From an uncultured Methanoregulaceae archaeon (GTDB lineage Archaea > Halobacteriota > Methanomicrobia > Methanomicrobiales > Methanospirillaceae), in the NCBI GenBank assembly GCA_963705255.1, contig OY970061.1, forward strand, positions 288,001-352,000: DNA of 64,000 nucleotides, given 5' to 3'. The translations under genes and the position numbers were made by a program. The notes below the pieces were generated by a model, which saw nothing but the letters and a program-made list of their open reading frames with translations, was not told where the DNA came from and did no database searches. Of this stretch, positions 14,734 to 31,138 are shown in pieces (position 1 is the stretch's first letter; every line of letters starts with the position of its first letter).

Positions 14734-15879
14734 TCATTCAGCGTCCTCCTGGTGTTTTTCCATGGCGGCCTGGATGATTGTACGGCCGTGCGAACTGACA
14801 AACTCTTTCTGTTTTACCGAATACTTCTGCTGTTTTTCGACGAACGCAGAAAATTCCTGCAGGTAGTCGATCATCCGGATGTCCTGCTGGAGCGGGACCG
14901 GCCGGTCCTCCTCCTCCGACTTCACCCGGATCTTCAGGTCGAGGAGGCGCTCGCGGACACCGACAAGGTCTTTCGTGTCGATCCCCTTCCCGTGCTCCCG
15001 CGAGAGCCCGTCGAGCGTCACCTGCGCCATCGCGTACTCCGGCAGGTTTTTGTTTTTTACCCGGGCGATGATCTCCCCCGTGATATCCCCGGGGTGGACG
15101 CCTGAACACCTGACTGTCCCGAGGTCCGCCATCGGCGTCTTCGGGAGTTCGAGGTGCCGCACCTCATGCCTGCCCGGGTCCACGAGAAGCCCGCCCTTCT
15201 CGTCCGCGATTTCGCCGTAGGTGAGGTACTCCGTGGAGCCCGAGTACCAGCTGTTGTCCGTGATCCGGCACTGGCGGTGGTAGTGGCCGAGCGCGATGTA
15301 ATCGAAACGGTCGGAGAGGATCGTATTGTCCAGCTCGTGCTCCGCGACTGTGGCTAATCGTTTGTCTTTTATCTGCGTGGCGAGGCCGTGGGTCACAAGG
15401 ACGTTGTGGTGTTTGCCGGAGAGCTCGATCTCATCGTAGGCTATGCGGTAGTCTTCCGGTCTCAGCATATTGGGGATCAGGTGGAAGAGCGTGTCGCCGA
15501 GTTCTGTTTTTTCGTACCGGAATTTGTATGCGGCCGTGATCTGTGATTTGTGGTACGTCAGGACTTCGAACGGCGAGGTCGTGTACCGGGTCTTGACCAT
15601 GCTGTGGTTGCCGGCGATTATCACCAATGGTATGCCGGCTGCGTGGAGGCGTTCGAGTGCTTCTAAAACTGTTGTATAAGCTTTGGTCTTCGGTTTGACG
15701 GTGTCGAAGAGGTCGCCGGCGTGGACGAGGACGTCGGGTTTCTGGGGGATGATGACATCTATCGCTGACAGGAAGTTGTCGTAAATTTGCTTCTCGCGGA
15801 GGTTCATGCCGGACTCGGGATCAAGTCTATTGAAGGCAGCGAGGCCGAGGTGGGTGTCGGCGATATGGATGAGTTTCAT
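14734..15879 (-). CDS. mre11: Mre11/SbcD metallophosphoesterase nuclease
   Basis: ADTHLG, AGDLFD, GNH and ALGHYH motifs; upstream of rad50. Confidence 0.92.
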   Translation of the reverse strand: MKLIHIADTHLGLAAFNRLDPESGMNLREKQIYDNFLSAIDVIIPQKPDVLVHAGDLFDTVKPKTKAYTTVLEALERLHAAGIPLVIIAGNHSMVKTRYTTSPFEVLTYHKSQITAAYKFRYEKTELGDTLFHLIPNMLRPEDYRIAYDEIELSGKHHNVLVTHGLATQIKDKRLATVAEHELDNTILSDRFDYIALGHYHRQCRITDNSWYSGSTEYLTYGEIADEKGGLLVDPGRHEVRHLELPKTPMADLGTVRCSGVHPGDITGEIIARVKNKNLPEYAMAQVTLDGLSREHGKGIDTKDLVGVRERLLDLKIRVKSEEEDRPVPLQQDIRMIDYLQEFSAFVEKQQKYSVKQKEFVSSHGRTIIQAAMEKHQEDAE

Positions 15880-16329
15880 TTTGGTTATGGAGTATGTGGA
15901 TTTTTCTTGAATATAAGGGGGAGGGGGAGAGAGTGAAACTAAAATCCCGGGCTTGGATTTTATGGAACCCAGGTCTTTCCGCCTATAGCGGGATTAATAT
16001 TTTCCGGGTGCTTATATCTCCTTACTATCATGAGCACGAAAGCGAGAATTACGGGAGTTCCCAGGACTCCTGTCGTGGCACCACGCACGAAGACCCGGTC
16101 AGTGCCGGACCGTGATGAAGAGGTGCACCTCTCCCCGGTCCAGCGGATGCGGGGAAAGATCTCTCTTTCGGATCCGGAAATGGTCCGCCGTATTATTTTT
16201 GATCCGTCCCTGGAGTCGTGACCGATGGTTGCGGGGTCCGGGAGTGACGCGACCATTTTCATTGATGCAAATATTTGCGACCAGGACAATCCGCTACACA
16301 CGGTGTAGCCAATTTCCTCCGGAGGGATC

Positions 16330-16547
16330 TCTTCCTTGCAGCAGCCACGGGGGAAGACAAGGAAAAACTGACGGAAGTTCCTGAGGTTCGTGACAGAAAA
16401 ACCGCACCGGAATTCACGTCTTAATTGTGCACTCAGTGCGTGCACAATCTGTTCGCCGTACCCTGCACGGTTCTCTCCAAGAATTTCACGGCGGATCCGA
16501 ACACCGATCCGCTCCATCAAGTCCTTACAATCCCCGCTTCCGGACAA
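16330..16547 (-). pseudogene. DUF1016/YhcG-like N-terminal fragment
   Basis: 'IGVRIRREILGENRAGYGEQIVHALSAQL...GFSVTNLRNFRQFF...LSWS' then degenerates into unrelated sequence. Confidence 0.65.
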
Positions 16548-16654
16548 ACACTCCTAAATCCCAGCCAAAACACACCCGGTCTCCGTGGGCTCTGGTGACG
16601 GAAAATGTATGAGAAAAAATGCATGCGGGGATACATGGTCTTTAAAAGAGAACA

Positions 16655-17188
16655 TCACGATCCCGGTGAAATCCGCTGGAGAGCATTCTTGAGATCGAGA
16701 TAGAGCGGGACGGTTTCACCCGGAGTCCGGATTGCCTGTTTGAATGAGAATTTTTTATAGAACTCAACGGCACTGTGCTTTGAATCCACCGTAATGATAC
16801 GGCAACCGACATATCGGGAGAGTGTGATGGAGATGGTGAAGATCTTCCTCAGCATACTCCGCCCGACCCCGAACCGCTCATACTCACTGTGCGTTGCCAG
16901 CCGTGCAATCTTCAGGGCCGGATACTTCCGGAAATGATAACTCTCTTCGCGGTCACATTCTTCGACAGCCCTTACTTCGATGCTGTCGTTGATGAGGGTG
17001 AAGTACCCGACAAGGTTCCCCTTCCAGAAAACCAGCCGCGTCACAGAAATCAGGTTGTTCTGGTTAACGAGTGCGTCATCCTTTAAAAATTCATCAAGTT
17101 CCGGTTCAGATGAATGAAACCCGGACAAATCATGATCTGCGTCCAGAAGGATAAATTCAAGTTCTTCAAAAGGGATGGGGGAGAGCAT
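16655..17188 (-). CDS. GNAT acetyltransferase, TA-toxin-like (AtaT/TacT-like)
   Basis: 'LDEFLKDDA', 'VGYFTL', 'YPALKIARLA', 'GVGRSML', 'ITVDSK..AVEFYKKFSF'. Confidence 0.85.
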   Translation of the reverse strand: MLSPIPFEELEFILLDADHDLSGFHSSEPELDEFLKDDALVNQNNLISVTRLVFWKGNLVGYFTLINDSIEVRAVEECDREESYHFRKYPALKIARLATHSEYERFGVGRSMLRKIFTISITLSRYVGCRIITVDSKHSAVEFYKKFSFKQAIRTPGETVPLYLDLKNALQRISPGS

Positions 17189-17202
17189 TCTAAAAGCACG
17201 CG

Positions 17203-17353
17203 TCAGTCAAGCCCGGCATGCTCTGCGTCGCGCTTCGCTTCACGCATAAGGTTCAGGCCTTCACGGGTAAATGTCGGATGCTCTGAGTACCTTCTGAAAC
17301 GCTATTGCATCATCGCCTTCGAGCACAAGCCCGATCTCAATTGGTTTTGCCAT
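17203..17353 (-). CDS. Small putative antitoxin upstream of the GNAT (one +1 frameshift)
   Basis: Hand translation MAKPIEIGLVLEGDDAIAFQK/YSEHPTFTREGLNLMREAKRDAEHAGLD; the span is 151 nt (50 codons + 1). Confidence 0.55.
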
Positions 17354-17462
17354 AAGCATCTTCTCCTGAATTTTTCGTTGTTTTATTATATGCTCAGGGA
17401 ATTATATCAAAGCTCTTGTGGAGGAGGTTGTCCGTCAGTACGATTTTGGATGCCTTGATTTC

Positions 17463-17786
17463 TCAGATCCCCATCTTCCCGGGCAGGTCCCGGGCCCAAG
17501 CCGCGATCGCTGCCGGGTCCTTCATAACTTTTGCAAGGCCGACGACGAACCCGGCGACCGGCACCTTCGCGAGGTCATTGCGGTGCTGTTTCACGAACTT
17601 CCCCACGTCGCCGACCATCCTCCCCATGTACATCGGCCCCCCGATGACGACCGCGTTGTATCCCGCGAGCGATGCGACCGTCCCCACCTCCGCGACGTCA
17701 GCGGTGTGGCCGGCGGCCTGCAGTTCCTTCCCGATCGCCTGCGCAATCTCTGCGGTCGATCCCGGTGCACCCGAAACCACCGACAC
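17463..17786 (-). pseudogene. HemG-like flavodoxin, internally deleted copy 1
   Basis: GSTAEIAQAIG..VVIGGPMYMG.. jumps from KDPAA directly to IAAWARDLP, missing about 50 aa that are present in the other copies. Confidence 0.7.
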
Positions 17787-17818
17787 ATTAATAATCCTAA
17801 TCGTGATTAGTCCTAATC

Positions 17819-19177
17819 ATGATTAGAGAGTTCATCGACCGGGAGGAGGAGCGCCTGCTGCTTGAGCATGAGTGGCAGAGTGCCGGCGGGAGGCTCATCA
17901 TCCTCTACGGCCGGAGGCGGATCGGAAAGACCCGGCTTATCGATGAATTTATCCGGGACAAGCCTGGCATACTCTATATCGCAGAGGACGCATCCCCGCA
18001 TATCCAGATAGCCCAGCTCAAGGCCCGGTGTGCGGAGTATTTTGGCGATCCTCTCCTCGCCGGGCTGGATATCAGGACGTGGGAGCAGCTCTTTACCTAT
18101 CTCGCACAAAAACCGCTCACCAGGAGGACGTACCTTGTGATCGATGAGTTTACGTACCTGATCCGGAACGACCCCTCCATTCTTTCTGCGCTCCAGAAAG
18201 CCTGGGACCGGAGTATCACCGGCTCCGACTGGTGCCTTCTCCTCTCCGGGTCGATACTCTCGCTCATGAGTGATCTTGCCCTCTCGTCCACATCCCCGCT
18301 CTATGGCCGGAGGACGCGTGACCTGCTGCTCGGGCCGCTCCGGTTCTCCGATGCGAGAAAGTTTTTCCATTTCCCGTTCTCTGACACCCTGAAAGTGTAC
18401 CTGTCGATCGGAGGTGTGCCGGAGTATCTTCTCAAGGCTGGCGCGTATGAGGATTGCAACTCATTTTACAAAACCGAGTTTTTCAACCGGTACGGGTACT
18501 TTTACCACGAACCGTACTTTATCCTCTCGCAGGAGTTCCGGGAGCTCGAGGTGTACCAGTCCGTCCTCCACGCGGTTGCGCTTGGCAACACCGCCCCGAC
18601 AGCGATCGCCCAGTTCTGCGGTCTCGACACCCGCCATGTGTACCCGTACCTCGAATCCATGATCCGGCTGGGGCTCGTGGAAAAAGAGGTGCCGCTTCTG
18701 GGTAATCCACGGCAGGGGATATACCGCATCCGGGACCGGGTCTTTGATTTCTGGTACTGCTATGTGTTCCCTCGCAGGCAGGAGATCGAGACGGGGCATC
18801 CCGGTTCCGTACTCCCGGACATCAACCCGTTCTTCGGCAGGCAGTTCGAGGCGTTCGTGCGGGACGAGTACGCCGGGGTCGTTCTGGCGGGATACCGTAC
18901 CGGCCACTGGTGGTATAAGGAGGACGAGATCGATCTCGTGGCGGTCGACGATAATTCATCTACCGTTATCTTCGGTGAATGCAAATGGGGGGATGTCAGT
19001 CTTCAGCAGGCTAAAAAACTCCTCGCCCTCTTAAAAACAAAGTCAAAGCTCGTGCGTGCCGACAATTACCGCCACCGGAAGTACGCGCTGTTCTCTGCCG
19101 GGACAATTGAAGGGAAGGCCCGGTTGCGGGACGATGGCTATCTGGTTTTTGACAGCACTGACTTAGAAGGATTCTGA
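17819..19177 (+). CDS. Archaeal AAA+ ATPase with C-terminal DUF234-type PD-(D/E)XK fold
   Basis: FIDREEE, GRRRIGKT, VIDEF, PLYGRRT, GGVPEYL; C-terminal EIDLV..FGECKW. Confidence 0.88.
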   Translation: MIREFIDREEERLLLEHEWQSAGGRLIILYGRRRIGKTRLIDEFIRDKPGILYIAEDASPHIQIAQLKARCAEYFGDPLLAGLDIRTWEQLFTYLAQKPLTRRTYLVIDEFTYLIRNDPSILSALQKAWDRSITGSDWCLLLSGSILSLMSDLALSSTSPLYGRRTRDLLLGPLRFSDARKFFHFPFSDTLKVYLSIGGVPEYLLKAGAYEDCNSFYKTEFFNRYGYFYHEPYFILSQEFRELEVYQSVLHAVALGNTAPTAIAQFCGLDTRHVYPYLESMIRLGLVEKEVPLLGNPRQGIYRIRDRVFDFWYCYVFPRRQEIETGHPGSVLPDINPFFGRQFEAFVRDEYAGVVLAGYRTGHWWYKEDEIDLVAVDDNSSTVIFGECKWGDVSLQQAKKLLALLKTKSKLVRADNYRHRKYALFSAGTIEGKARLRDDGYLVFDSTDLEGF

Positions 19178-19420
19178 TGAATCCTTCACGTCCTCGATAT
19201 TCTGATGAACATCTCTGACTTCGAAGAGTCCTGACGGACTCTTCCTGTCCTCGATATTCTGATGAACATCTCTGACTTCGAAGGATTCTGATGAATCCTT
19301 CACGTCCTCAAATCCTGCTGCACTCGATTTTTCTGAACTCGAAGGATTCTGATAAATCCTTCACGTCCTCGAATTTCGCTGCGCTCGATTCTTCGGATAT
19401 AGAAGGATTCTGATGAATCC
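19166..19420. repeat. Tandem array of about 4.5 units (57-62 bp), each starting with a 9-bp-stem hairpin GAAGGATTC-TGAT-GAATCCTTC
   Basis: Read directly; unit 2 has the compensated stem GAAGAGTCC-TGAC-GGACTCTTC; the linkers are related to each other, not unique spacers. Confidence 0.9.
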
Positions 19421-19455
19421 TGAGAATGGTGCGGTCCCGCAGCCGCTCCCCCGTT

Positions 19456-19713
19456 TCAGATCCCCATCTTCCCGGGCAGGTCCCGGGCCCAGGCCGCGAT
19501 CGCCGCCCAGTCGCGGAAGTCCCCGACCGGGGATTTTACTTTCTTGGTGATCCAGTTCTGGAACCACGAGAGTTTTTCAGGGTCCAGCCTGCCGGCGAAC
19601 ACGGTCCGGGCAACCGGCTGCAGCGGGGCGAGGGCGTCACGGAGTGCCTTCTCCGAGGCCGCGATCCCTGTCGGGTCCTCTGCACTATTGCGGCCGGTGA
19701 ATTCCCTCAGCAT
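19456..19713 (-). pseudogene. HemG-like flavodoxin, 3' fragment (copy 2)
   Basis: FAGRLDPEKLSWFQ...GDFRDWAAIAAWA; N-terminal half absent. Confidence 0.7.
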
Positions 19714-19775
19714 CCGCGATTTTTATCCGGGTTGTCGTTTGCGTAGAAAAAAAGAGTGAGGTTTACGATTGGACT

Positions 19776-20234
19776 CTAGAGAAGATCTTCGATCTTCCGG
19801 ATCAGGACCTCCGCATGGCGGATCGCGGATTCCGCCTCCGTTTCCGAAATGGAACCGGCCGTATCATAGACCGAGCTGTGGCGCTTGCGTCGCATCCGGT
19901 CGAAGATGACTGCATCTTGGTTATCCAGAAAGAGCTCAGCGAATTTTACAACGGAGATGTGCTGGTTCGCACCGTCCGGGCGGTACCCTTTGGAAAACAT
20001 CAGTGCCCGGCCGGCCTGAAGAACTGCGTTATACGCGATGGTGTATGCCCAGTCATGATCCGTAGTGAGGATTGTGCGTGCTGTGCTGAGATCACGGTGG
20101 GCCAGTGCAATCGCATCCTTCACTTTTTTTCTTTCGGGACCGAGCCTTTTGATCAGGCCCTCCCGTTCAAGGAGTCGAAGACCTTCGTCTTCTCCTCTCT
20201 CATCCCTTCGGGATTCGGGATCTTCAATCATCAC
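19776..20234 (-). CDS. HEPN domain protein
   Basis: AYNAVLQAGRALM, H, and RRKRHSSVY R-x-H type motif; downstream of an MNT. Confidence 0.85.
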   Translation of the reverse strand: MMIEDPESRRDERGEDEGLRLLEREGLIKRLGPERKKVKDAIALAHRDLSTARTILTTDHDWAYTIAYNAVLQAGRALMFSKGYRPDGANQHISVVKFAELFLDNQDAVIFDRMRRKRHSSVYDTAGSISETEAESAIRHAEVLIRKIEDLL

Positions 20235-20787
20235 AGGCTCCGCTTATCATGATCTTCTCTTCCTGCATTACATTCCTTACGAATGGATCCTTGTCCTTCT
20301 TCCGCTTTGTAAATTCCCGGGCGGTCATGAGCGTGTAATTGATCTCCCGGCCGGTGGCACGCTCGCAGGAATGGATGATGGGGATGAGCCGATCCTCCTC
20401 CACCGTTCCCACGATGAAGAGGTCGATGTCGCTTTTTTCACCGGCGGTCCCCTTTGCAAACGACCCATAGATGAAGACGCACGTGATCTCCTCACCGGCA
20501 ATGGCGTCCCTGATGATGCCGGCAACCCCTTCTGTCTTCAGCACGATCTTCTGGAGATCAGGATACAGGAAATGGCCGGTATTGACCGTGTAATACTGCT
20601 GGTTTCCTTTCTTCTGACCGGTAATGAGGCCGAAGGATTCGAGGTTTGCGAGCTCCCGGCGCACCGCATTGATATTCTCGGATGTCGTGCGGACGATCTC
20701 GCGGATGTAGAATTCGCTCCCCGGGTTGAGCAGGAAGAGCATGAGGAGCTTCACCCGGGTTTTTGATGAGATGAGCGCTTCCAGCAT
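20224..20787 (-). CDS. wHTH-fused minimal nucleotidyltransferase (MNT antitoxin)
   Basis: N-terminal ArsR-like HTH (YIREI...VRRELANL); YGSFAKG..SDIDL motif. Confidence 0.88.
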   Translation of the reverse strand: MLEALISSKTRVKLLMLFLLNPGSEFYIREIVRTTSENINAVRRELANLESFGLITGQKKGNQQYYTVNTGHFLYPDLQKIVLKTEGVAGIIRDAIAGEEITCVFIYGSFAKGTAGEKSDIDLFIVGTVEEDRLIPIIHSCERATGREINYTLMTAREFTKRKKDKDPFVRNVMQEEKIMISGACDD

Positions 20788-20827
20788 GAATACATAATGT
20801 ATTCAATTGAGTAAAAAATGTATTCAT
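20787..20827. promoter_or_regulatory. Palindromic operator/promoter TGAATACAT-A-ATGTATTCA plus an extra half site
   Basis: Perfect 9-bp inverted repeat abutting the MNT start codon; near-identical copy at 44644-44683. Confidence 0.55.
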
Positions 20828-20869
20828 TGCCCGATTCATGTCCCGGTACTTATGAGCGGTTTTCCCCTT

Positions 20870-21355
20870 TTTCACGCTCCCATCTTCCCAGGCAGCAATC
20901 GCGGCCCAGTCGCGGAAGTTGCCGACCGGGGATTTTACTTTCTTCGTGATCCACTTCTGGAACCACGAGAGTTTTTCCGGGTCCAGCCGGCGGCGAACAC
21001 GGTCCGGGCAACCGGCTGGAGCGGGGCGAGGGATGCATGGAGTGCCTTCTCCGCGTTTGCCATCGCTGCCGGGTCCTTCGAGACCGCCGCAAGGCCCACG
21101 GTGAACGCGGCGACCGGCACCTTCGCCAGACTATCGCGGTGCCGTTTCACGAACTTCCCGACATCCCCGACCCATCCTTCCCATGTACATCGGCCCACCG
21201 ATGACGACCGCGTGGTAGCCCGCGAGCGATGCGACGGTCGCCACCTCCGCGACATCTGCAGCGTGGCCGGCGGCCTGCAGTTCCTTTCCTATCGCCTGCG
21301 CAATCTCAGCGGTCGATCCGTTCTTCGATGCGTAGGCTATGAGGATGTGGGACAT
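20870..21355 (-). pseudogene. HemG-like flavodoxin, near full-length copy 3 with frameshifts and a 3' deletion
   Basis: MSHILIAYASKNGSTAEIA..., continuing in other frames to GNFRDWAAIAAW. Confidence 0.7.
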
Positions 21356-21585
21356 GGTTTTTCACTTAATTGAAAATTGTGTGTTGGAGGGGATAAGGGT
21401 GGGGGGGTGTTGGAAAATAAATTGTGTTAACGATTCATGTTGAAATCATGTTGAAAAAATGTCGCGAGGTAGTCCTATGACTATGGAAAAACACTGGATA
21501 ACTCATAACTCAATAATCACTTTCACGCAACTCAAACTGAATAACTAAATTAAGTGACGTATCCAATAGATCCTGAGGTTGGGTA

Positions 21586-22624
21586 TTGAGTCCAAAAGAG
21601 ATCTTTTTTCAAAATGATCGGGTTCTTATTATAAATGATAGTATTTTCGAAACCAAACTTATCAAACCCGACTCTGTTGATCTGGTTGTGACATCGCCCC
21701 CCTATAATGTTGATATCAAATATAATTCGCACGATGATCAGATATCTTACGAAAAATACAAAGAGTTCAGTAAAGACTGGATGACCTGCTGCTACAAGTG
21801 GCTCAAAGATGATGGAAGATTCTGTCTGAATATACCTCTCGATAAAAATAAAGGTGGCCAGCAGAGTGTTGGTGCCGATTTAACAACGATTGCAAAAAAG
21901 ATCGGTTTTAATTATCATTCTACTATCATCTGGAATGAAGGAAATATTTCACGACGGACTGCCTGGGGTTCATGGTTGAGTGCTTCTGCACCCTACGTGA
22001 TTGCACCCGTTGAATTAATTGTCATTTTGTACAAAAAATACCTGGAAGAAGACAAGCGGTTCTCAAGAATCAGATATTTTACGACAGGATTTTTTGGATT
22101 GGACCAATGGGCTCTGGTCTTTTAGCGGAGAGAGTAAAAAGAAAATCGGACACCCTGCACCGTTCCCTGTCGAATTGCCAAAGCGATGTATGAAATTATT
22201 CAGTTTCAAAGGAGATACGGTTTTAGATCCTTTCCTCGGAAGTGGAACAACCCTTGTTGCGTCTTACCTCAATGACCGGAAAGGAATTGGAATTGATATC
22301 GATCCTCACTATTGTCAGATTGCGCTTGATCGTCTGAAAAAAGAAGGCGGAATGGGACAGACCAGCATCTCACAATACTTCACACAGCCCAAAACAAAAC
22401 CAAAAAGCAAGAAAACCGGCTTAACCCAAACGGATATTATTTTCCAATATTTCAAAGATCATCCATCACGATCCGTTACCTATGATGATGTCGGAGAATG
22501 GATCAAACAAGAGAGTGAAAAAAATTCTGTTATGGAAATCAAAGCTTTTGAAAAAATTATGAGGACTCTGGCAAAAGAAGGAAAAATTACCAAAATTGAC
22601 AAAGGCCTTTTCAAATACGAATAA
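21586..22624 (+). CDS. Site-specific DNA methyltransferase (beta class, N4-C/N6-A) with C-terminal wHTH-like tail; +1 frameshift in the A-run at ~22035
   Basis: VTSPPYN (motif IV), HPAPFP and VLDPFLGSGTT (motif I); the two ORFs join by removing one A. Confidence 0.88.
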
Positions 22625-22734
22625 CCCGAATTGATTGCTACCCGGGCTTGTCTTTTTTCAATTAGGTTTATTTTAGTATAAATATAAACAAAGGTTTCTG
22701 ACAGAGTATTCATTCCACGAGATGGTGTCAAGCA

Positions 22735-23325
22735 ATGCCCGAACGAACTCAAAATCAGGAGCGCCAAGCATCCGTGAGCAGGGAAGGTGCAAAATTTGAA
22801 TTATATGTGAAAAATTCCTTGAATGATTCGTTTACCACTCAAAAGCAAAATATCCGAATATTGAATGGAAATGAAGTTTTCAAGGACCCGCATCTCAAAG
22901 ACCATTTTACAATACCTGTTCGGGGATTCAACAAGAACTGGGGTGATGTGGATCTCGTTGCAAAAGATCTTGACACCAATCATCCTATCGCATTAATTAG
23001 TTGTAAATTGAGTCTTCATGGACGGTTTTCTGAAACTCTTTTCTACTCGAAGATATATCGTGATAAAATACCTGATTTGAAAGTAGTTTTCGCAACACCG
23101 GATAAAGGAAGGCAGAGCCAACCCGGCATTTGGAAATCCGAATGGGGCACAACTCCAAACCCAACAAAAGATCGTGCTTTTGCGGAAACATTTCTCGATG
23201 GGGTTTACATTGATAATGAATATCGGATAAGTGAATGGGGATTAACTGGAGCGACCGTTCTTGGTGGAAAAATTAAGCCATTCGCTCAATTGGCCGGAGA
23301 TATTGAAAGTTGGAAAATTGTTTGA
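22735..23325 (+). CDS. Putative type II restriction endonuclease (PD-(D/E)XK)
   Basis: G..FE, GDVDLV...ISCKLSLHGR (PD...S-x-K variant seen in Cfr10I/BsaWI-like enzymes); adjacent to the MTase. Confidence 0.7.
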   Translation: MPERTQNQERQASVSREGAKFELYVKNSLNDSFTTQKQNIRILNGNEVFKDPHLKDHFTIPVRGFNKNWGDVDLVAKDLDTNHPIALISCKLSLHGRFSETLFYSKIYRDKIPDLKVVFATPDKGRQSQPGIWKSEWGTTPNPTKDRAFAETFLDGVYIDNEYRISEWGLTGATVLGGKIKPFAQLAGDIESWKIV

Positions 23326-23447
23326 TAATCCATCTACAGACGAACATCTTATCAGTTTTTTAACCATTCTTCGAGTTCAGAATAACAATTTTTATTACCA
23401 AAATTTTTCAGAAATTATAATGTCATAGGAAACTCACAGTCAATGCA

Positions 23448-24323
23448 ATGGTAAATTTCGAAAACTGGTTTTTCAAATACAATACTTGGTCGTACAGCAA
23501 GCACCGGCTTTTTGATTTATGTAAAAGAAATTTTTATTACCGCTATATTGGGACTGCTCTAAAAGAGTCCACTGATTTCGATACTTATAAATTAAAACGG
23601 CTGAAGGACCTTAATTCAAAATATGCGTTAGAAGGACTATTGATCCATGGCGTTATCGAAAATCAGATTGGACAACATTACCTCGGAAGAGATCTGAACG
23701 AAGGTGGAGCAAAATCTCAGTTTGTCCAAAGAGTTGAGCAATACCGAAAAACGGCATGCGATATGATAACTGAATTTTTTAATGGACTTCCTAAAGATGA
23801 TGAATTCTTTGACAGAATTAGAGCCGAAGGCCAGGATAAAATTAGCATGTTTTTTGGTGTTATCTGGCCCCAATTAAAAGATCTCGAATACCTGAAACAT
23901 GAAGATTTTGACAAATTCAAAATCAACGACGTGGAAGTTACTGTCAAAGTGGATTATGTTAGCAAAACAAAAAATGATATAATTGTACTTACGGACTGGA
24001 AGACTGGCCAAGATAATGAAGAATATGAAAGTGATCTGCAGATTGGGACTTATGTACTCTGGGCGATGCAATATTATCAGAAAACGCCAATACAGATTCG
24101 AAATGAGCTTGCCTACTTGAAAACTGGCATGATGCGACAGACTGAATTCAACGACGAAGTTTTGGAAACAATTAGAAAAAAGATTGTCGACGATTTCGAG
24201 CAGATGAATTTGAATTATGAGATGAACAATTATCCTGCCTCTCCAGAACCTCGTAAATGCATTAGCTGCCAGTTTGGGACTGTTTGCCCGGAATCTAAGA
24301 TTAAAGATTATTTAAAAGGGTGA
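23448..24323 (+). CDS. Cas4/RecB-like PD-(D/E)XK nuclease (PDDEXK_1) with probable Fe-S cysteines
   Basis: WSYS...C (N-terminal), G..IH, KVD..., DWKTG, Q...Y and C-terminal CISCQFGTVC. Confidence 0.85.
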   Translation: MVNFENWFFKYNTWSYSKHRLFDLCKRNFYYRYIGTALKESTDFDTYKLKRLKDLNSKYALEGLLIHGVIENQIGQHYLGRDLNEGGAKSQFVQRVEQYRKTACDMITEFFNGLPKDDEFFDRIRAEGQDKISMFFGVIWPQLKDLEYLKHEDFDKFKINDVEVTVKVDYVSKTKNDIIVLTDWKTGQDNEEYESDLQIGTYVLWAMQYYQKTPIQIRNELAYLKTGMMRQTEFNDEVLETIRKKIVDDFEQMNLNYEMNNYPASPEPRKCISCQFGTVCPESKIKDYLKG

Positions 24324-24327
24324 TTTT

Positions 24328-26958
24328 GTGGATAAAAAAATGGAAATTTTGATCATATTTGCAAATATTTCTGAGAACAAGACCACAATCTCTTTAGACT
24401 CCTTGAGTAATATCCGACTTATTCTGAGTTTATTTCAAGAAGAAATAATCTCTGACGATGAATTCAATCAAGAACTTGAAAATCTTATTGAAGAGGGTTA
24501 TTTATCGAAATCTAGATCGGAAGAATTCGAAGTTACTCCACGTGGTCTCGACAATAGTCAAATCTATTGGAAGAACCCTTCTAGGCGAATCAGAGTATGA
24601 TCGATTAACACATTCTATTTTAGATTATACGAATTCCAAAGGAAAGCCTAAATATATTAGAATGCTTGGGGATCGCCTTAATAAACTTCAGCAGGCGAAA
24701 GCAAATAAGACGAGAAATGTTGATCCGAATTCCGTCCATCCGCTAGGAATTTTAATAAAAATTCAACACAATATAGAGCAACTTTTCACCAGCGAATTTA
24801 ATCTCATTGCTGATCATCTAAAAGATAATAAAATCTTTGAGAACGAAAAGAAAAACTTGCAAAACAAACTTTCTCGTCAGTATAACATTCCAATAATTGT
24901 TTTGCGATCTGGAAATACTCTTCTTGTAACAGGTCCGATCAGAATTGAATCGATTTCATTTTTCAACACAATTCTATCATCTGTAAAATGTTATCCGACT
25001 GAACGAAGGAAAATACCACAATGGAATAATGTAATTTTATATCATTTCGTTGAGAAAGCATTAAGAAAAATTGGGTTTTTACCTTCTGGACAATTTACCT
25101 TCACGAATTATTCAAACTGCAAACAGCATGAAGAAAACTCCGGTTATTTAGAATGTGATGCAATAAAATTGAGTTTCATCGACCTCAAGAACGACACGGT
25201 TTTTGTTTTCGTCGAATCATATCAGTCAATTCTTCATTCTTTACTTCAATTCATAGCTGTAAATTTAAAAAGTGGAACATCAAGAGATGCGATCATCGAT
25301 AAGATCAAAAAATTAAAATTGAGAGTAATTCCCTTTGGGAGGAGAATTAATTTTATAGATCTTGCCTGGGATAAAGATTTGAGTCATGAAAAAATCCCAG
25401 ATAGCATGAAAACATACTGTGAATACTGGGAAGACACACATGGGATTCTAATATCTCAAATAATTCAACCTATTATCATAACTCAAGCCTTCAACCGATC
25501 ATTATCCTATCCAGCCGAAATGATAAATATCGACAAACTTTCTATTGAACAGGCTTACGGGAATGTTCCAAAACGAAAGCCGAGATATGAGGACCTAGAT
25601 GAAAGATTTAATAAAATAAAATATCTCTCTAGTTTCAAGTCATATCGTGATGAAAATACAGAAAAATTTTTTAAATTGAATATTATCGAAAACTCTCCTT
25701 CTCTAAAAACGTTGATTGATCTAAACGGATTTAAAGGAACGGTTCAGATTTCACCACCATTATTGGAATTTTCAAGAGGGGCGTTTAGTATTGATCCTTT
25801 GGATGTCTTTAATCATGAATTTGGACCTGTTTGCGGGAAGAAAAATCTTGTAATCACTCATATCCTTACTCACGTGTCTATTAGTGACAGACAAATTGAT
25901 ATTTTCTGTGACGCAATAAGTCGAGCATTTAATATTTTTAATTTTGGCACAATAAGCAAGAATCCAGGAGCAAAAATAAAAAAATTCGATTCGATAACGA
26001 ACCTCAATGCTCTTGAAAATAAAGTCCGTGAATTTGAACCGTTAAACAATTCCAATGCAATTGGAATTGCAATAATTCCGGATGACTCGTCATTTTATTA
26101 CTCGTTAAAAAATATGTTTCCTGTCAAAACTGGTACGAGACTTCAAATTGTTAAAATGTCATCATTCGATAAAATAATTTCATCTAATTTTCCGGGTATG
26201 AAGCTTCTCAGCTCTAAATATTTTTATTAAAGCATTGAAAACAAATGAAGCCGTATGGACATTAGCAACATCTGCGGGGTCTCTCGAAAGAAAAATCCTT
26301 ATTCTTGGGTATTGGTTTCAGTCAAAATCCGTATGAAGGTAAAATCAGTAAATGCGCTACAGTGATGCATGACTCCCACGGAGCAAAAATAACTTGGAAA
26401 GTGTTTGCAACCCCCCAACAAAAAAGAACAATCGATGTAATTTGGTTTGATAATTTATTAACAAGAATCCACGATATCGTCGATTCTGAAAAACCATCTC
26501 GAATCGTTTGTTATCGAACTGGAGAATTGTTCCCAACGGAAATGGATGCCTTAAAAATTGCAATAAAAAAATGTCAATGGCTTGATTCGATAAAATTATC
26601 ATTTATTTCAATAATTGATGCATCGAATTGCCGGTTTTTCAAAAGAAATGATAGAAAGTTGAATCTACCGGCGGGATATGGAATAATAATTAATGACAAA
26701 GAAGCTTTTCTCTCCACATCAAATTATGATAGTCGTGGGTTGCGGCAGGGAACTGTGATGCCAGTTCGAATAAAAAATGAACTTGGTGATGATCTGATAA
26801 CAAATATCCTCATGGAATACCATGACCTGACCTACCTAAACTGGCAAACTCCATTTACTACTGCAAAACATCCACTGGTTGTAACAATTGCAAATCGCTT
26901 TGCGGAACTCACGAGAGAAGGAGTGCCCACGGAGAACACATTTTATTTGGATTTATGA
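24328..26958 (+). CDS. ago: Long prokaryotic Argonaute (wHTH?-N-PAZ-MID-PIWI*), catalytic tetrad degenerate; three +1 frameshifts (~24550, ~26210, ~26278), ~875 aa when repaired
   Basis: PAZ-like TYCEYWEDTHGI...QPII...YPAEM; MID-like FYYSLK...LQIV; LALNIFIK...VWTL; PIWI FLGIGFS, YRTG, QGTVMPV, DLTYLNWQT..KHPLVVTIANRFA. Confidence 0.82.
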
Positions 26959-27912
26959 CGGTCACAGTAATTTCAGACGAAATAATATCAGCCTTGTCAA
27001 CTCTGGCACCCTCAATAGATCCAGCAAAAGCAAAATTGGAGATAGATCCAATTTCAATCGAATTCTCAAATTTTTTCAGCTGAACCTCTTGGATTAATCG
27101 TAATTGAATTTATCCAAGAAACCGTGAAAGATGGAAACTATTCATTTTTAATTCCAAATAAGTGTCCGGATAGAAAAGAGTTCGATAGAATAATTTATTC
27201 ATTGTACTCCCAAAAGAGACATGAAAAATTATCTTACTTGCTGGATATTTACCATTTTTTCTGGATTAAACACCCGGATATAGAAACAAGTGCATTATTC
27301 GATTCTCTAAAAAAAATCGAGGAATCGAGAACAATAATTTCGAAAAAAACTATTCTCAAAATTTGTTCAGAATGCTCATCAGATTCTCGCGATAATCCAT
27401 GTTGTAAATCGACAGATCGAAATCTCCTTGAAATTACGGATTGTTCATTACATGAAAATGTTGGGGCAGTTATCCGTTTCAACCAACATATGGAGATTTA
27501 TGTAAAAAACCAATTGAACAAATCAGGCATAAAAACAGTTGGTTGGGAAAAGGAACGATATGGAAAAGAAATCTGCACAAGTGTAACATATCATTGTGAC
27601 GGTGAACCAATTGAGATGGATACAATCGGTATCTCAACACCTCTTGCAGTATTATTAATCGAAGTAAAGACAGCGAAGAATACTTCCATGAATGAAATTA
27701 GAAAGACGGAAAATAAGTTTGAATCGATAATTTCCAAGATCAATAAGATCTCTAATCGAACAATCCCCTTTTTAAAAATTTTTGTTACGAGCGGCGAATT
27801 CGATCCGAATCTACCAATAAAAGCATACCAGAGAAAAAATTGGGATTTTATTGACAGATCAAAGGTTACGAAAATAAACGAAGAGTTTGAGAAAATTAAA
27901 AAATCACTTTAA
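26955..27912 (+). CDS. Ago-coupled protein with Cys-rich (Zn-finger-like) middle and C-terminal PD-(D/E)XK nuclease; frameshift in the T-run at ~27073
   Basis: ATGA overlap with the Ago stop; MTVTVISDEII... joins FSAEPLGLIVIEFIQETVKDG; CSEC...CSLH; E...EMD...LLIEVK. Confidence 0.7.
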
Positions 27913-27960
27913 TTATTTGAGTTTGACACAGGTTACATTAAAAATTAATTTTATTGATCA

Positions 27961-29547
27961 TTAAATGTCGTAGACGCCTGAATCGGGGACAGAGAACTCG
28001 GCGTTTGCACCGTTATAAAATGAGATATCTTCGTCTTTGAGAATTTTGAAAAATGGATCTTCCTCAAGAATTTCTTCCGAAGCAATCAACCATCCCTTAT
28101 TCACGGCTTCATATGCTAATAGCCAATGATCATCATATAACTGTTCTTTAACTAAGAACTTCATCCAAATATTCTCGTTTAAATCATCTTTTATTAATCC
28201 GATATTTCTCATGTCCAACGCAATTAGGGCTACTATAGGATTGTCATTTTTCGAAAGAATTTCTGAAACATCATTTTCCATTACAAAATTCATTTCTTTT
28301 GCCAACCACAATGCCCAAGCGATTTCAAAATCATTTGAATATTTGCTATGGAACCGGATCAATTCAGAAATCGTCTCTCCAATTCTATCGATTTTTCCTT
28401 CATAATTAATATCTTTGAGACGCAACAAAATTTCTACAACGTTTGGAATGCACGAGCTTTGAACTTGCATCGATTTCAACAACAACGATTCAAATAATGG
28501 AATATTATCATCAAATATTTTTTTATTTCTAACGCGTATAATCCCATATTTTAAAACAAAATCGTCAGGAAATAATGCACAATACTCATTCACTCGACTG
28601 AAATAATTTATGAGATCCGTTTTTTGAGTTTTAATATTATTCGAAGAATTCTCAGGAATCCTAAAATTAAATTGTCGAATACCGGGTACCCATATGGGTT
28701 CCAATATGTGTGGGACTTCGCATATTTTTATTTTACTGGGGTTCACCTCTAATTCAAAATTTTTTAAAATTTTTTGTAATTTGGTGAGAGCTTCTTCGGC
28801 TACATATAAATCTTGAAAAAAAAGGAAATAATCGTCAATAATCCGAATTCCTTTTAATGGTTCATTCAATTGTTTTTCTAATTCAATATCTACTGCAGTA
28901 GCAATTATCTCCGCTACTATCACAGAAGAATCCGGTCCGATTGGAATCCCAATTGTCTGTCCGTCTCTAGTTCCTCTCAAACATCTATCAAGATCATTTC
29001 CAAAAAGAGATCGATTATTACGTTCACGTTTAGCAATTGCTTTGCCATGAAGTGCCCAAGCTATACTATGAGTATAGATTGTATCATAATACCTCGAAAT
29101 ATCCGCCCTCAACATATGTCTAAATTGGGTGGATCTTAAAGCAATTTCTTGCTCAAAATTTACCTTATCTTTAACAACATCGAAAGAACGTTTTTGTTTA
29201 TCTCTAATAATTGGAAAACAAGGTCTTGATATTGAGATAGGAGACTTTTTTACATGATCCTTTATTTTATCCCAATTTTTTTCAATATAATAACAAAGCA
29301 TCAATTGATAAAATGGGTTTGGAATTGTCAAATTTCGTCGAAGATTTTTAACTCTGGGAACTGAAAATAAACAACTTTTGGATCCTGGTATATTTTTTTT
29401 TGATTTTTTAGTCCATTGTTTAATAGATCTCTCTAATTCGCTCAAAGGTAACAAATTCATTTTTTCTGCAAGATCATTGGTTTGAAAAGGAGGTGGAACT
29501 TCAACGGGGAAATACCCCCAATTAATAAGATCCTTTGCTGTGAGCAT
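27961..29547 (-). CDS. Defence-associated reverse transcriptase of UG/Abi (DRT/AbiK-like) type with alpha-helical C-terminus
   Basis: RRNLTIPNP, ADISRYYDTIYTHSIAWALHG, GIPIGPDSS, RIIDDY (YxDD equivalent), LEVNPSK; C-terminal helical EIAWALW/HWLLAYE. Confidence 0.88.
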   Translation of the reverse strand: MLTAKDLINWGYFPVEVPPPFQTNDLAEKMNLLPLSELERSIKQWTKKSKKNIPGSKSCLFSVPRVKNLRRNLTIPNPFYQLMLCYYIEKNWDKIKDHVKKSPISISRPCFPIIRDKQKRSFDVVKDKVNFEQEIALRSTQFRHMLRADISRYYDTIYTHSIAWALHGKAIAKRERNNRSLFGNDLDRCLRGTRDGQTIGIPIGPDSSVIVAEIIATAVDIELEKQLNEPLKGIRIIDDYFLFFQDLYVAEEALTKLQKILKNFELEVNPSKIKICEVPHILEPIWVPGIRQFNFRIPENSSNNIKTQKTDLINYFSRVNEYCALFPDDFVLKYGIIRVRNKKIFDDNIPLFESLLLKSMQVQSSCIPNVVEILLRLKDINYEGKIDRIGETISELIRFHSKYSNDFEIAWALWLAKEMNFVMENDVSEILSKNDNPIVALIALDMRNIGLIKDDLNENIWMKFLVKEQLYDDHWLLAYEAVNKGWLIASEEILEEDPFFKILKDEDISFYNGANAEFSVPDSGVYDI

Positions 29548-29652
29548 TAATGAGTATTCAAATCAAGCAAGGAAAATACTATCTTTTTTTATTTTGCTTT
29601 CAGTAATCAAACAGAGACCCATGTTGCTGTGATCCTCAAATCCCCGGAGAAA

Positions 29653-29910
29653 TTATTCCCCTTTCCCTTCAATAATCGCGATAACTTTCTTTCCGGTATC
29701 AGTTATCCGGTAATATCGGCCCGTGTGTTCATCCGGTGTCAGGCATTCAACGAGGCCCTTTTCGGTAAGTTCAATCATGACTCTGCTGATCGTAGAGCGG
29801 TCCATAACCAGTTGTTTGGCGAGATTCGTTGGCGAGTTGGGTTTATGAAGAGCTTTAAGCACCAGTCTCCTGGTCTTCCCTCTACCGACAAAACTCACAA
29901 GGTCAAACAT
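29653..29910 (-). CDS. Small winged-helix transcriptional regulator
   Basis: SPTNLAKQL..RSTISRVMIELTEKGLVEC...GRYYRITDTG. Confidence 0.85.
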   Translation of the reverse strand: MFDLVSFVGRGKTRRLVLKALHKPNSPTNLAKQLVMDRSTISRVMIELTEKGLVECLTPDEHTGRYYRITDTGKKVIAIIEGKGE

Positions 29911-29995
29911 TTAATGAAAAATGGGGTGATTATTGTGATGAATTTGCGTAGTGATGATGTTGTACTGATGTGGTAAATTTTATCGCCTTCCCCGG

Positions 29996-30430
29996 CCAAT
30001 ACCTACTCCGGTGCCTGGTGAACATAAATCGAATAAATGTGGATGTGAAAATATCCCGGAGCGGTCACCCCCGGCTGTAAACTTTGTTCCGACCTGGAAC
30101 ATTGTCGCTCCGCAGGTGCTTCACCAGACACCGCATCGGGGAGATTCTTCGTCAAGGATCTCCCCAATTTTAGAGTAATTCGAAGAACTCCTACGAGTTC
30201 TTCTCATCCTCTCATAACCTCATGGCTATGAGAGTGCTCCCAAATAACCCCGGTACGGCCCCGGATTCCCTGTTTTTCCGGAGACAGAGACAGTAATTCC
30301 GGAAAATGAGACAGTAATTCATGCATTTCCGGTCATTTTTACACCTGAAACCATGAGACGCTATTTGGGTGCATTTGGACACGAAAAAGAGGGTGGATCG
30401 GGTTTCAGCCCGTCTTTGCATATTTTCTGG
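29996..30430. repeat. Interspersed repeat B, copy 1
   Basis: Aligns by eye with 32544-33112 and 31252-31430 (GCGGTCACCCCCGGCT...GGGGATT..GATCCCC; CTCATAACC..ATGAGAG; GTAATTCCGGAAAATGAGACAGTAATTC). Confidence 0.85.
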
Positions 30431-30662
30431 AATGGAAGAGGCTTCCTGATGATTATGGGGGGTGTCGCGATTTTACGTCGGAGAAGGGATACCTTAAGAG
30501 TACTATCCCCCCGGCAGAGCCCCCTCCGGCGATCACCGGCGCAGGAGTGCCCTGCCACTCTCAACCGCGATGGCAAAAACACATGAGCCAATGTGAGTCC
30601 GGTCCCCACAACAGGCCGGGCAAAAAATGGAAAATAATCGGAAGATGTAAAATACGTTTTTG

Positions 30663-30881
30663 TTATTCAGCCTGGACTGCAACGAATGTTGCCGATGAAT
30701 GGGATTTTGGGACTGGCATACCATCCTCAATAAGCCCGCGGATATGCATCTCGATCGCTTCATGCATCCGCTCTTCCGTTTCCTCGCGGGTTTTTCCGGT
30801 TGCAATACAACCAGGAAGATCCGGAGAGTATGCCGAAAAATTCTTTCCGGCTTTTTCAATTACAATCAGGAACCTGTGCAT
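30663..30881 (-). CDS. hicB: HicB family antitoxin
   Basis: FSAYSPDLPGCIATGKTREE...EAIEMHI motif. Confidence 0.9.
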   Translation of the reverse strand: MHRFLIVIEKAGKNFSAYSPDLPGCIATGKTREETEERMHEAIEMHIRGLIEDGMPVPKSHSSATFVAVQAE

Positions 30882-31138
30882 TGTATGATCATTCCTTGAA
30901 TTTCTGAAGAATTGAGCATAGCGAAATTCGAAGACGAGAAGAGTTCATAAGAACTCTTCGAAGGTTCTTGCTTAGAGATACTGTTCATCGTACCGGGGGC
31001 AAGATCATCTGAAAAGTGTCCGGCAATGGTGACCCGTCCGGATTTTTCCTTATGCTTGTACTGACGATGACTTCCCTTCGATGCAACACTATACCATCCA
31101 TCATCCTCGATTAATTTGATCATCTCGCGGACTTTCAG
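30866..31138 (-). CDS. hicA: HicA family toxin; 3' end interrupted by an in-frame palindromic repeat unit
   Basis: KVREMIKLIEDDGW...KGSHRQYKH...GRVTIAGH...DLAPGT; the C-terminus switches to repeat-derived sequence. Confidence 0.8.
   Translation of the reverse strand: MKVREMIKLIEDDGWYSVASKGSHRQYKHKEKSGRVTIAGHFSDDLAPGTMNSISKQEPSKSSYELFSSSNFAMLNSSEIQGMIIQCTGS

Follow-up and report, generated by a model that had tools for sequence, protein, structure and literature searches.

Systems built on inactive prokaryotic Argonautes (pAgos) work by switching on partner effectors, and Cas4-family proteins can help active long-A pAgos with their guides. Here, we describe a module that places both types of partner around one Argonaute. 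It is encoded in a 64,000-nucleotide stretch of DNA (the window; contig OY970061.1, positions 288,001 to 352,000) from an uncultured Methanoregulaceae archaeon, and its three genes, all on the same strand at 23448-27912 of the window (~311-316 kb of the genome), encode a Cas4-like nuclease (gene 1), an Argonaute and a second nuclease (gene 3). The reading that fits best is a BPAN-like pair of sensor and effector, accompanied by a Cas4-family helper like that of APACE and built around a small, distinct family of full-size inactive pAgos. With a confidence slightly better than even, we go further and regard the module as an intact, horizontally acquired three-gene pAgo defense module that combines an APACE-like guide partner with a BPAN-like effector and whose Argonaute lost slicing independently.

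Two described systems each resemble one half of the module. The Argonaute-effector half resembles BPAN, which consists of a long-B pAgo and the nuclease bAgaN (e.g., EcBPAN of E. coli) and in which an inactive full-length pAgo is likewise encoded directly upstream of a two-domain effector (Song 2023; Liu 2026). bAgaN has a C-terminal restriction-endonuclease fold with a D-EVK motif (Song 2023). It shares with gene 3 the structural neighbors Card1, Can2 and BspD6I as well as the D...E-V-K motif, and therefore the Argonaute-effector half of the module probably works like this known system. Moreover, the N-terminal domain of the effector engages the Argonaute in BPAN, and the same part of gene 3 docks on the Argonaute in our predicted complex. 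The module also differs from BPAN in several respects: its Argonaute carries an N-terminal extension of 126 residues as well as a PAZ domain of full size and groups with pAgos that keep the catalytic Asp residues; gene 3 has a zinc (Zn) ribbon and matches none of the Ago-associated nuclease models of PADLOC; and a Cas4-family gene always lies upstream.

The Cas4-like part of the module resembles APACE1 and APACE2, in which a Cas4-family enzyme, ACE1 or ACE2, is encoded beside a long-A pAgo (Bobadilla Ugarte 2025). ACE1 is an endonuclease of single-stranded DNA; it processes small interfering DNA guides and forms a heterodimer with its active long-A pAgo. The ACE proteins and gene 1 share one N-terminal and three C-terminal cysteines together with a D-DxK motif, and many relatives of both occur without a pAgo. 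By contrast, the pAgos of APACE have an intact DEDX tetrad and do the target cutting on their own, which the Argonaute described here is predicted to be unable to do, and no second nuclease is described in APACE. Short pAgo systems (SPARDA, SPARHA and SPARTA/SPARSA) resemble the module in that an inactive pAgo senses and a partner effector acts; however, their pAgos have no N and PAZ domains and their effectors are fused to APAZ, and there is no APAZ in the module.

An initial annotation of the sequence held that Cas4-family partners are known mainly beside catalytically active long-A pAgos and that the architecture may be undescribed. The first claim is overstated: Cas4-related nucleases were reported beside three long pAgos, among which that of Dehalococcoides sp. 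is inactivated (Makarova 2009), and Cas4 orthogroups are among the nucleases linked to inactive pAgos (Ryazansky 2018). The Dehalococcoides case shares with the module an inactivated long pAgo and a Cas4-related PD-(D/E)XK nuclease; however, it is a one-sentence genomic note that mentions no third gene. A Chloroflexota protein is present among the Cas4-like relatives of gene 1. The second claim stands for the combination: in the full-text literature we found no account of an inactive Argonaute between Cas4-family and bAgaN-like nucleases (supplementary operon tables, e.g., Table S3 of Ryazansky 2018, may list it), nor of the N-terminal extension of the Argonaute, nor an experimental study of the family. 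It does not stand for the parts, as the effector half is BPAN-like and a Cas4 beside an inactive pAgo is known.

The three genes are tightly packed, both in the window and elsewhere. Four base pairs separate the stop codon of the Cas4-like gene from the GTG start of the Argonaute gene (24328), and the stop codon of the Argonaute gene and the ATG of gene 3 share a 4-bp overlap (ATGA). The surrounding island (21500-29600) is AT-rich, with a GC content of 0.348 compared to 0.547 in the remaining window. Beyond the window, we examined one locus from species genomes (L002, in a bin labeled Methylomonas and the only locus found in a scan of species-genome contigs) and twelve from metagenomes. A Cas4-like gene lies directly upstream of the Argonaute gene and on the same strand in all seven loci with enough upstream DNA (L002-L006, L008 and L010), and these copies are 46-83% identical to that of the window. 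Likewise, gene 3 lies directly downstream in all eleven loci with downstream DNA (L002-L009, L011, L012 and L014). Spacing between the genes is 0-12 bp, or they overlap by 4 bp. Loci outside these counts end at contig edges or are decayed. Thus, the co-directional, packed three-gene arrangement in an AT-rich island that the initial annotation had described is confirmed, and its synteny is conserved. Also borne out are the identities that it had assigned, i.e., an upstream Cas4-like nuclease, a full-length, PAZ-containing, inactive Argonaute and a downstream Zn-finger nuclease, all in a methanogen, as the host genome carries mcrA. At two of the other loci (L010, 6077-9508, and L013), an open reading frame (ORF) of 151-161 aa, probably an insertion sequence (IS) element, has been inserted into the Argonaute gene; at L012 (7965-9184), a 148-aa C-terminal Argonaute remnant is followed by gene 3 and preceded by unrelated genes.

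The Argonaute is a single chain with N, PAZ, MID and PIWI domains, i.e., of the long (four-domain) form. Pfam Piwi matches the last piece of the assembled gene (6.3e-14) and the homolog P0003 (3.9e-18), and an AlphaFold2 (AF2) model of P0003 has the full Argonaute fold, with a predicted local distance difference test score (pLDDT) of 89.8 and a predicted template modeling score (pTM) of 0.88. The PAZ domain is of full size: in P0003, residues 306-403 align to positions 2-105 of the 123 positions of the Pfam PAZ profile, at 22 bits and thus below the cut-off, while the relative P0043 passes it (29.3 bits versus 28.8) and a profile search gave matches to PAZ structures of PIWI-like protein 1 (E 0.0024). 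The MID domain has the canonical pocket for a 5'-phosphate. K595, Q607 and K635 are each present in all 28 aligned family members, Y591 is Y in 21, R in six and H in one, and the pieces of the window's own Argonaute carry the Y-K-Q-K residues. By contrast, the PIWI domain is degenerate. Position 663 is G, A or S in 28/28 family members and D in 6/6 aligned relatives; position 731 is T, K, R, A, P, S or E in the family, never D, and D in 6/6 relatives. These relatives (760-830 aa) have D-V-S and (K/R)-D-G where the Argonaute of the window has, as first noted in the initial annotation, FLGIGFS and YRTG. In a wider alignment, both Asp residues are absent from 26/26 family members and kept in 43/49 other pAgos. 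Because both catalytic Asp residues, and with them the DEDX tetrad of slicing Argonautes, are lost, the Argonaute should be unable to slice. Judged from its sequence, it is catalytically inactive and keeps the pocket for a 5'-phosphorylated guide.

A further feature sets the family apart. Residues before position 127 form a winged-helix-like N-terminal extension with no structural match and a weak match to HTH_45 (0.0044). The extension is present in 28/28 family members, with G73 invariant, and is gapped in five of the six nearest Asp-keeping relatives.

The family is small. A word-indexed search with the large Argonaute piece returned eight proteins. A full hidden Markov model (HMM) search of 1.84 billion representative proteins returned 131 family representatives at E ≤ 0.001, of which 45 had E ≤ 1e-30. 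Approximately 28 of the proteins are full length (855-895 aa), and the family is largely archaeal and environmental. In a quick MID-PIWI tree (LG+G4) of 75 pAgo matches, from which fragments <650 aa (except six short ones) and P0001, P0038, P0052, P0054, P0056 and P0156 were omitted, the family forms one clade with a Shimodaira-Hasegawa-like approximate likelihood ratio test (SH-aLRT) support of 99. This clade groups with 29 Asp-keeping pAgos to the exclusion of the other 20 (support 96). Two features of long-B pAgos are present, an inactive PIWI domain (PIWI*) and a YK-type MID motif, whereas the shortened PAZ domain (PAZ*) that is usual, although not absolute, in long-B pAgos is not. Tetrad-bearing pAgos are reported to occur in long-A only (Ryazansky 2018), and the grouping with Asp-keeping pAgos, in a tree of unlabeled matches, therefore hints at an inactivated family related to long-A-type pAgos and not at a classical long-B group. 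The long-B placement implied by the initial annotation is not shown by this tree. At the sequence level, the best PDB matches of the C-terminal part of the PIWI domain are short pAgos (E 5e-6), and phmmer searches of PDB with the Asp-keeping relatives P0080 and P0093 gave no matches.

Gene 3 has 25 close homologs of 318-322 aa, all unnamed, and no Pfam family. In 32 aligned sequences, three cysteines (C137, C140 and C152) and a fourth at position 153 or 155 form a Cys4 Zn ribbon, E183, Y185 and K187 are kept, and the nuclease motif D225...E239-x-K241 is kept as well, so that all catalytic residues are present. The AF2 model (pLDDT 92.7) has an N-terminal domain (residues 1-122) that is predicted to be almost wholly helical, a cysteine-bearing hairpin and an alpha/beta nuclease domain. 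Searched against representative structures, the model matched (entry; score; aligned positions) Can2 (7bdv; 12.8; 204, with a root-mean-square deviation of 4.0), VC1899 (1xmx; 12.5; 221), a second Can2 entry (8bao; 12.4; 208), Cdn1 (8z4i; 11.9; 205), Card1 (6wxw; 11.8; 174), AF1548 (1y88; 10.8; 113), Can1 (6sce; 10.7; 168), the nickase BspD6I (2ewf; 8.5; 154) and NucS (2vld; 8.2; 106). The matches are confined to the nuclease part of the chains (from approximately residue 130-150) and never extend to the CARF part. Thus, gene 3 is, on its model, a Zn-ribbon protein with a PD-(D/E)XK nuclease domain of the Can2/Card1 type. In contrast to Can2, Card1, Can1 and Cdn1, which are CARF nucleases of type III CRISPR systems, and to VC1899, it has a helical domain and a Zn ribbon where the CARF domain sits. 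Because gene 3 has no CARF sensor, its predicted trigger is the Argonaute rather than a cyclic oligoadenylate.

A complex prediction supports binding of gene 3 to the N-terminal extension of the Argonaute. The full Argonaute and residues 1-122 of gene 3, modeled in three runs with our own alignments and no nucleic acid, scored 0.64, and the best of three controls scored 0.00. Of 80 solved complexes, 58 attain this score mark, as do 2 of 110 mismatched pairs, counts that hold only roughly here because our own alignments were used. The three runs share at least 95% of their contacts. The predicted interface pairs residues 56-57 and 71-84 of the Argonaute, which include the invariant G73 and belong to the family-specific extension, with residues 76-105 of gene 3, which include the invariant L92 and L96. 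Once activated, nuclease domains of the Can2/Card1 type are non-specific. This speaks against an alternative in which gene 3 replaces the lost PIWI site and cuts only Argonaute-bound DNA, with no collateral damage or cell death. The inactive-pAgo nuclease systems compared here, i.e., BPAN and nuclease-associated short pAgos, also degrade collaterally. On the other hand, the complex model suggests a tether that is independent of the target, whereas BPAN recruits its nuclease only after target binding, and substitution of a nuclease for the lost slicer was the original proposal for such associations (Makarova 2009; Ryazansky 2018). We consider such target-specific cutting unlikely, if worth keeping in mind.

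Gene 1 matches Pfam PDDEXK_1 (3.3e-18), Cas_Cas4 (26.7 bits versus a cut-off of 22.7) and the PADLOC model Aga_Cas4-like_Nuc (2.2e-11). In the eight copies linked to the Argonaute, C25, C271, C274, C280, D169, D183-W-K185, Q198 and Y202 are invariant. By these sequence features, gene 1 is an ACE-like Fe-S nuclease of the Cas4 family, with four Fe-S cysteines and the D...DxK motif of PD-(D/E)XK enzymes. It is not part of a cas operon; the Cas1 matches of the genome are at 503 kb and 2.53 Mb. The Cas4-like family comprises 129 clusters, with named members in Methanoregula, Halobacteriota, Thorarchaeota and Chloroflexota, and a profile of its alignment gave no matches to PDB sequences at E ≤ 0.01. 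The role as guide generator that was initially suggested for gene 1 is proposed by analogy only.

Several observations weigh against reading the module as an intact system of guide partner, sensor and effector, and a search for RNA runs returned none. First, gene 3 has no sequence-level link to any PADLOC model of an Ago-associated nuclease (0 PADLOC families); PADLOC models likewise fail to cover the Argonaute as a whole, and in that check, one that the initial annotation had proposed, the locus does not match a characterized system. Second, the docking on the N-terminal extension, predicted without nucleic acid, is unlike the solved interface of EcBPAN, in which a loop of bAgaN takes its place between MID and PIWI once guide and target are bound and not before, and the pLDDT of the partner is low (50-54). 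Third, gene 1 is far more widespread than the other two genes. Cas4-like matches (E ≤ 1e-10) occur in 67 of the 228 genomes of the host's family, compared to the window's genome only for the Argonaute and gene 3, and in none of 14 Cas4-like loci examined in these genomes does gene 3 or an Argonaute, be it of this family or a related one, lie within ~6 kb. The three closest copies (69-73% identical) adjoin UvrD-like helicases, an OLD-type ATPase and a DnaQ-like exonuclease, and two of them adjoin an sbcD that is 82-89% identical to the sbcD of the window. In a careful tree of the eight Ago-linked and 14 other copies, the Ago-linked copies are not one clade on the best tree and the label needs two changes; the copies of the window and L003 group with the three closest non-Ago copies (support 98/97). 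Given such varied neighbors, the Cas4-like enzyme resembles a portable nuclease for DNA ends whose partners vary. These data are what would be expected if the Argonaute and gene 3 made up a two-gene, BPAN-like unit and the Cas4-like gene were an independent or helicase-linked resident of the island. However, the Cas4-like gene lies immediately upstream and on the same strand, at 4-12 bp or overlapping, in every one of the seven informative Argonaute loci. Moreover, forcing the Ago-linked copies together costs 13.3 log-likelihood units and is not rejected (approximately unbiased test, p 0.065), and ACE proteins, too, frequently occur where there is no pAgo, although ACE1 acts together with its own. 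We therefore regard a mere bystander role of the Cas4-like gene as quite unlikely.

Fourth, two of the three module genes are interrupted in the assembled sequence, by a total of four +1 breaks. We aligned short-read contigs from four metagenome runs (X1-X4) of one study to positions 20700-29800 of the window, and at each break short-read contigs lack exactly one assembled base (Table 1). With these bases omitted, the Argonaute has 875 aa and no internal stop and aligns over its full length to homologs of 873-879 aa, gene 3 has 318 aa and the neighboring methylase 345 aa, and all frames are open. The initial annotation had obtained an Argonaute of ~875 aa by removing three single bases, a length and a count that the short-read contigs bear out exactly, and missed the fourth extra base of the module, in gene 3 (27077); the MID/PIWI match that it asked of the repaired frame exists. 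One X1 contig also adds TTT after 25625, a codon present in homologs. Four of the five extra bases of the island lie at two hexamers. GGTCTC occurs four times in the 9.1 kb, both plus-strand copies being error sites, and TCAGCT occurs three times, with error sites among them. This clustering looks like systematic base-calling error and suggests that such errors are linked to motifs, perhaps to methylation, across the assembly, in which case other genes of the genome may be falsely broken at GGTCTC and TCAGCT. Flanking housekeeping-type genes are also broken in the assembly, and the genome is one 2.6-Mb contig, yet has a completeness score of only 89.5%.

Since each of the four extra bases is missing from short-read contigs, we conclude that the breaks in the module are assembly errors and that its three genes are intact. 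Three points count on the other side. The runs are from one study and maybe from the source sample, and thus correct the assembly rather than represent independent strains. Two of the four breaks (26280 and 27077) rest on a single contig with a depth of ~5-6. Finally, the database protein P0001 (629 aa, 100% identical to the Argonaute of the window) reads through the first break and ends at the second, and therefore at least one other assembly carries that break; P0001 comes either from another assembly of the organism with different errors or from a real variant. Related loci decay as well, with the Argonaute gene split by an IS-like ORF in two and reduced to a 148-aa tail in a third. Still, given that omission of all five extra bases restores full-length frames and that the pattern at the two hexamers is typical of systematic base-calling error, it is very improbable that the breaks are real and the cluster is a decaying, non-functional set of pseudogenes in this host.

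The module is rare, and its distribution is patchy. Among 401 genomes of the host's class, a search with the Argonaute matched two (E ≤ 1e-5), that of the window and a second with only a weak match (5.2e-7) to a different pAgo of 773 aa. Gene 3 was detected in one of the 228 genomes of the host's family, which is the window's own. The cassette is AT-rich at every locus (GC 0.34-0.41), usually more so than its flanks, and the same cassette is found in unrelated genomic contexts. A tblastn search of plasmids with P0003 returned one weak match (24.8% identity, 26% query coverage), a Piwi protein of a different family that is encoded on Hydrogenophilus pTH1 beside a UvrD-like gene. In the window, the module is set in a defense island, between a type II restriction-modification (R-M) pair and a Drt4-like reverse transcriptase. 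A role outside defense, in which the Argonaute and the two nucleases would act on DNA ends of the host in repair, replication or recombination, would be in line with the location of the module 7.5 kb from sbcCD, with the pairing of its Cas4-like relatives with helicases and with the implication of pAgos in replication and repair (Bobadilla Ugarte 2025). Occurrence in only the window's genome among 401, a foreign, AT-rich composition, neighbors of the R-M, reverse transcriptase and toxin-antitoxin types and the recurrence of the same cassette in unrelated contexts all argue against such a role, to which we assign very little probability.

The features of the window are listed in Table 1. A reverse transcriptase 50-62% identical to that of the window adjoins the cassette in the three closest loci, L003 (8785-10404), L011 and L014 (1257-2723), and is co-directional with it once, in L014; this proximity may reflect either linkage within the island or a functional connection. 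In two genomes of the same genus (L031 and L032), the sbcCD neighborhood of the window holds other cargo, namely a Gabija-like combination of OLD-type ATPase and UvrD-like helicase, a Cas4-like gene that shares 69-73% identity with that of the window and a DnaQ-like exonuclease. The sbcCD neighborhood thus looks like a hotspot for defense islands. Several short-read contigs diverge around the flavodoxin-like gene, possibly reflecting strain variation. No tRNA genes were found at 12000-40000 of the window, and no repeat pair marking the ends of the island was found.

Table 1. Coordinates of the module, its domains, its extra bases and its neighbors in the window. Extra bases are listed with the short-read runs whose contigs omit them.
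Feature	Position	Strand	Remarks
sbcC-like gene	10981-13029, 12978-14450	-	two ORFs; a single 812-aa ORF in relatives
sbcD	14734-15879	-
KilA-N protein, AAA_14/DUF4143 and DUF234 ATPases, DUF1016 protein, nucleotidyltransferase	within 15960-20787 and 29653-31123		variable-region neighbors
Flavodoxin-like gene	20850-21373		outside island edge; frames split; short-read contigs have inserted bases at 20988 and 20990
Type II N4/N6 DNA methylase	21586-22624	+	two frames as assembled; upstream half of R-M pair
Extra base, methylase	22033		X1, X2, X3
BsaWI-like restriction enzyme	22735-23325	+	partner in upstream type II R-M pair
Possible archaeal promoter region	23385-23447	+	TATA-like A/T-rich stretches 30-55 nt 5' of the Cas4-like ATG, identified by eye
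Gene 1, Cas4-like	23448-24323	+	291 aa
Argonaute	24328-26958	+	875 aa with extra bases 24546, 26209 and 26280 omitted
Argonaute ORF pieces as assembled	24328-24600, 24458-26230, 26305-26958	+
N-terminal extension	24328-24706 (approximate)	+	~residues 1-126, winged-helix-like, family-specific
Extra base, Argonaute	24546		X1, X3, X4; hexamer GGTCTC
PAZ	25226-25560 (approximate)	+	full size; Pfam PAZ
MID	25730-26240 (approximate)	+	canonical Y-K-Q-K 5'-phosphate pocket
Extra base, Argonaute	26209		X1, X2; hexamer TCAGCT
PIWI	26240-26958 (approximate)	+	catalytic residues lost; GIGFS for G-x-D, YRTG for (K/R)DG
Extra base, Argonaute	26280		X1 only (X2 contig begins at 26277); hexamer GGTCTC
Gene 3, bAgaN-like effector	26955-27912	+	318 aa with extra base 27077 omitted
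Gene 3 ORF pieces as assembled	26955-27083, 27124-27912	+
Extra base, gene 3	27077		X1 only; hexamer TCAGCT
Drt4-like reverse transcriptase	27961-29547	-	528 aa; PADLOC Drt4 1.1e-170, Drt6 4.9e-165; convergent with gene 3
Small winged-helix regulator	29653-29910	-	variable-region neighbor
HicB/HicA-like ORFs	30663-31123	-	identified by eye

We infer the following mechanism from the folds and motifs, the order of the genes and the single complex model. The Argonaute would load short 5'-phosphorylated guides and scan invading DNA, with gene 3 held on its N-terminal extension. We suggest that target binding via the guide switches gene 3 on, probably by joining nuclease domains as in BPAN and in the dimeric Can2 and Card1. 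Activated gene 3 would then degrade DNA, either the target itself or DNA at large, the latter amounting to abortive infection. The Cas4-like enzyme may turn DNA ends or single strands into guides, or trim guides, similarly to ACE1 for long-A pAgos. A more specific version of this scenario is possible, although we hold it only tentatively: a full-size pAgo lineage would have lost slicing independently of the long-B and short clades, have a Can2/Card1-type nuclease permanently tethered by a new N-terminal winged-helix adaptor and be served by a dedicated Cas4-family enzyme that makes or trims guides.

Because both types of partner surround one Argonaute, the module offers a compact system for two questions, i.e., where a non-slicing Argonaute obtains its guides and how the signal to fire reaches the nuclease. 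This signal may pass via a docking domain different from the solved interface of BPAN. The closest relatives retrieved keep both Asp residues; loss of slicing together with the recruitment of a nuclease in this lineage would be convergent with long-B and short pAgos. If a tethered nuclease and a dedicated guide maker are indeed at work here, one operon would unite the supply of guides known from APACE with the effector activation known from BPAN.

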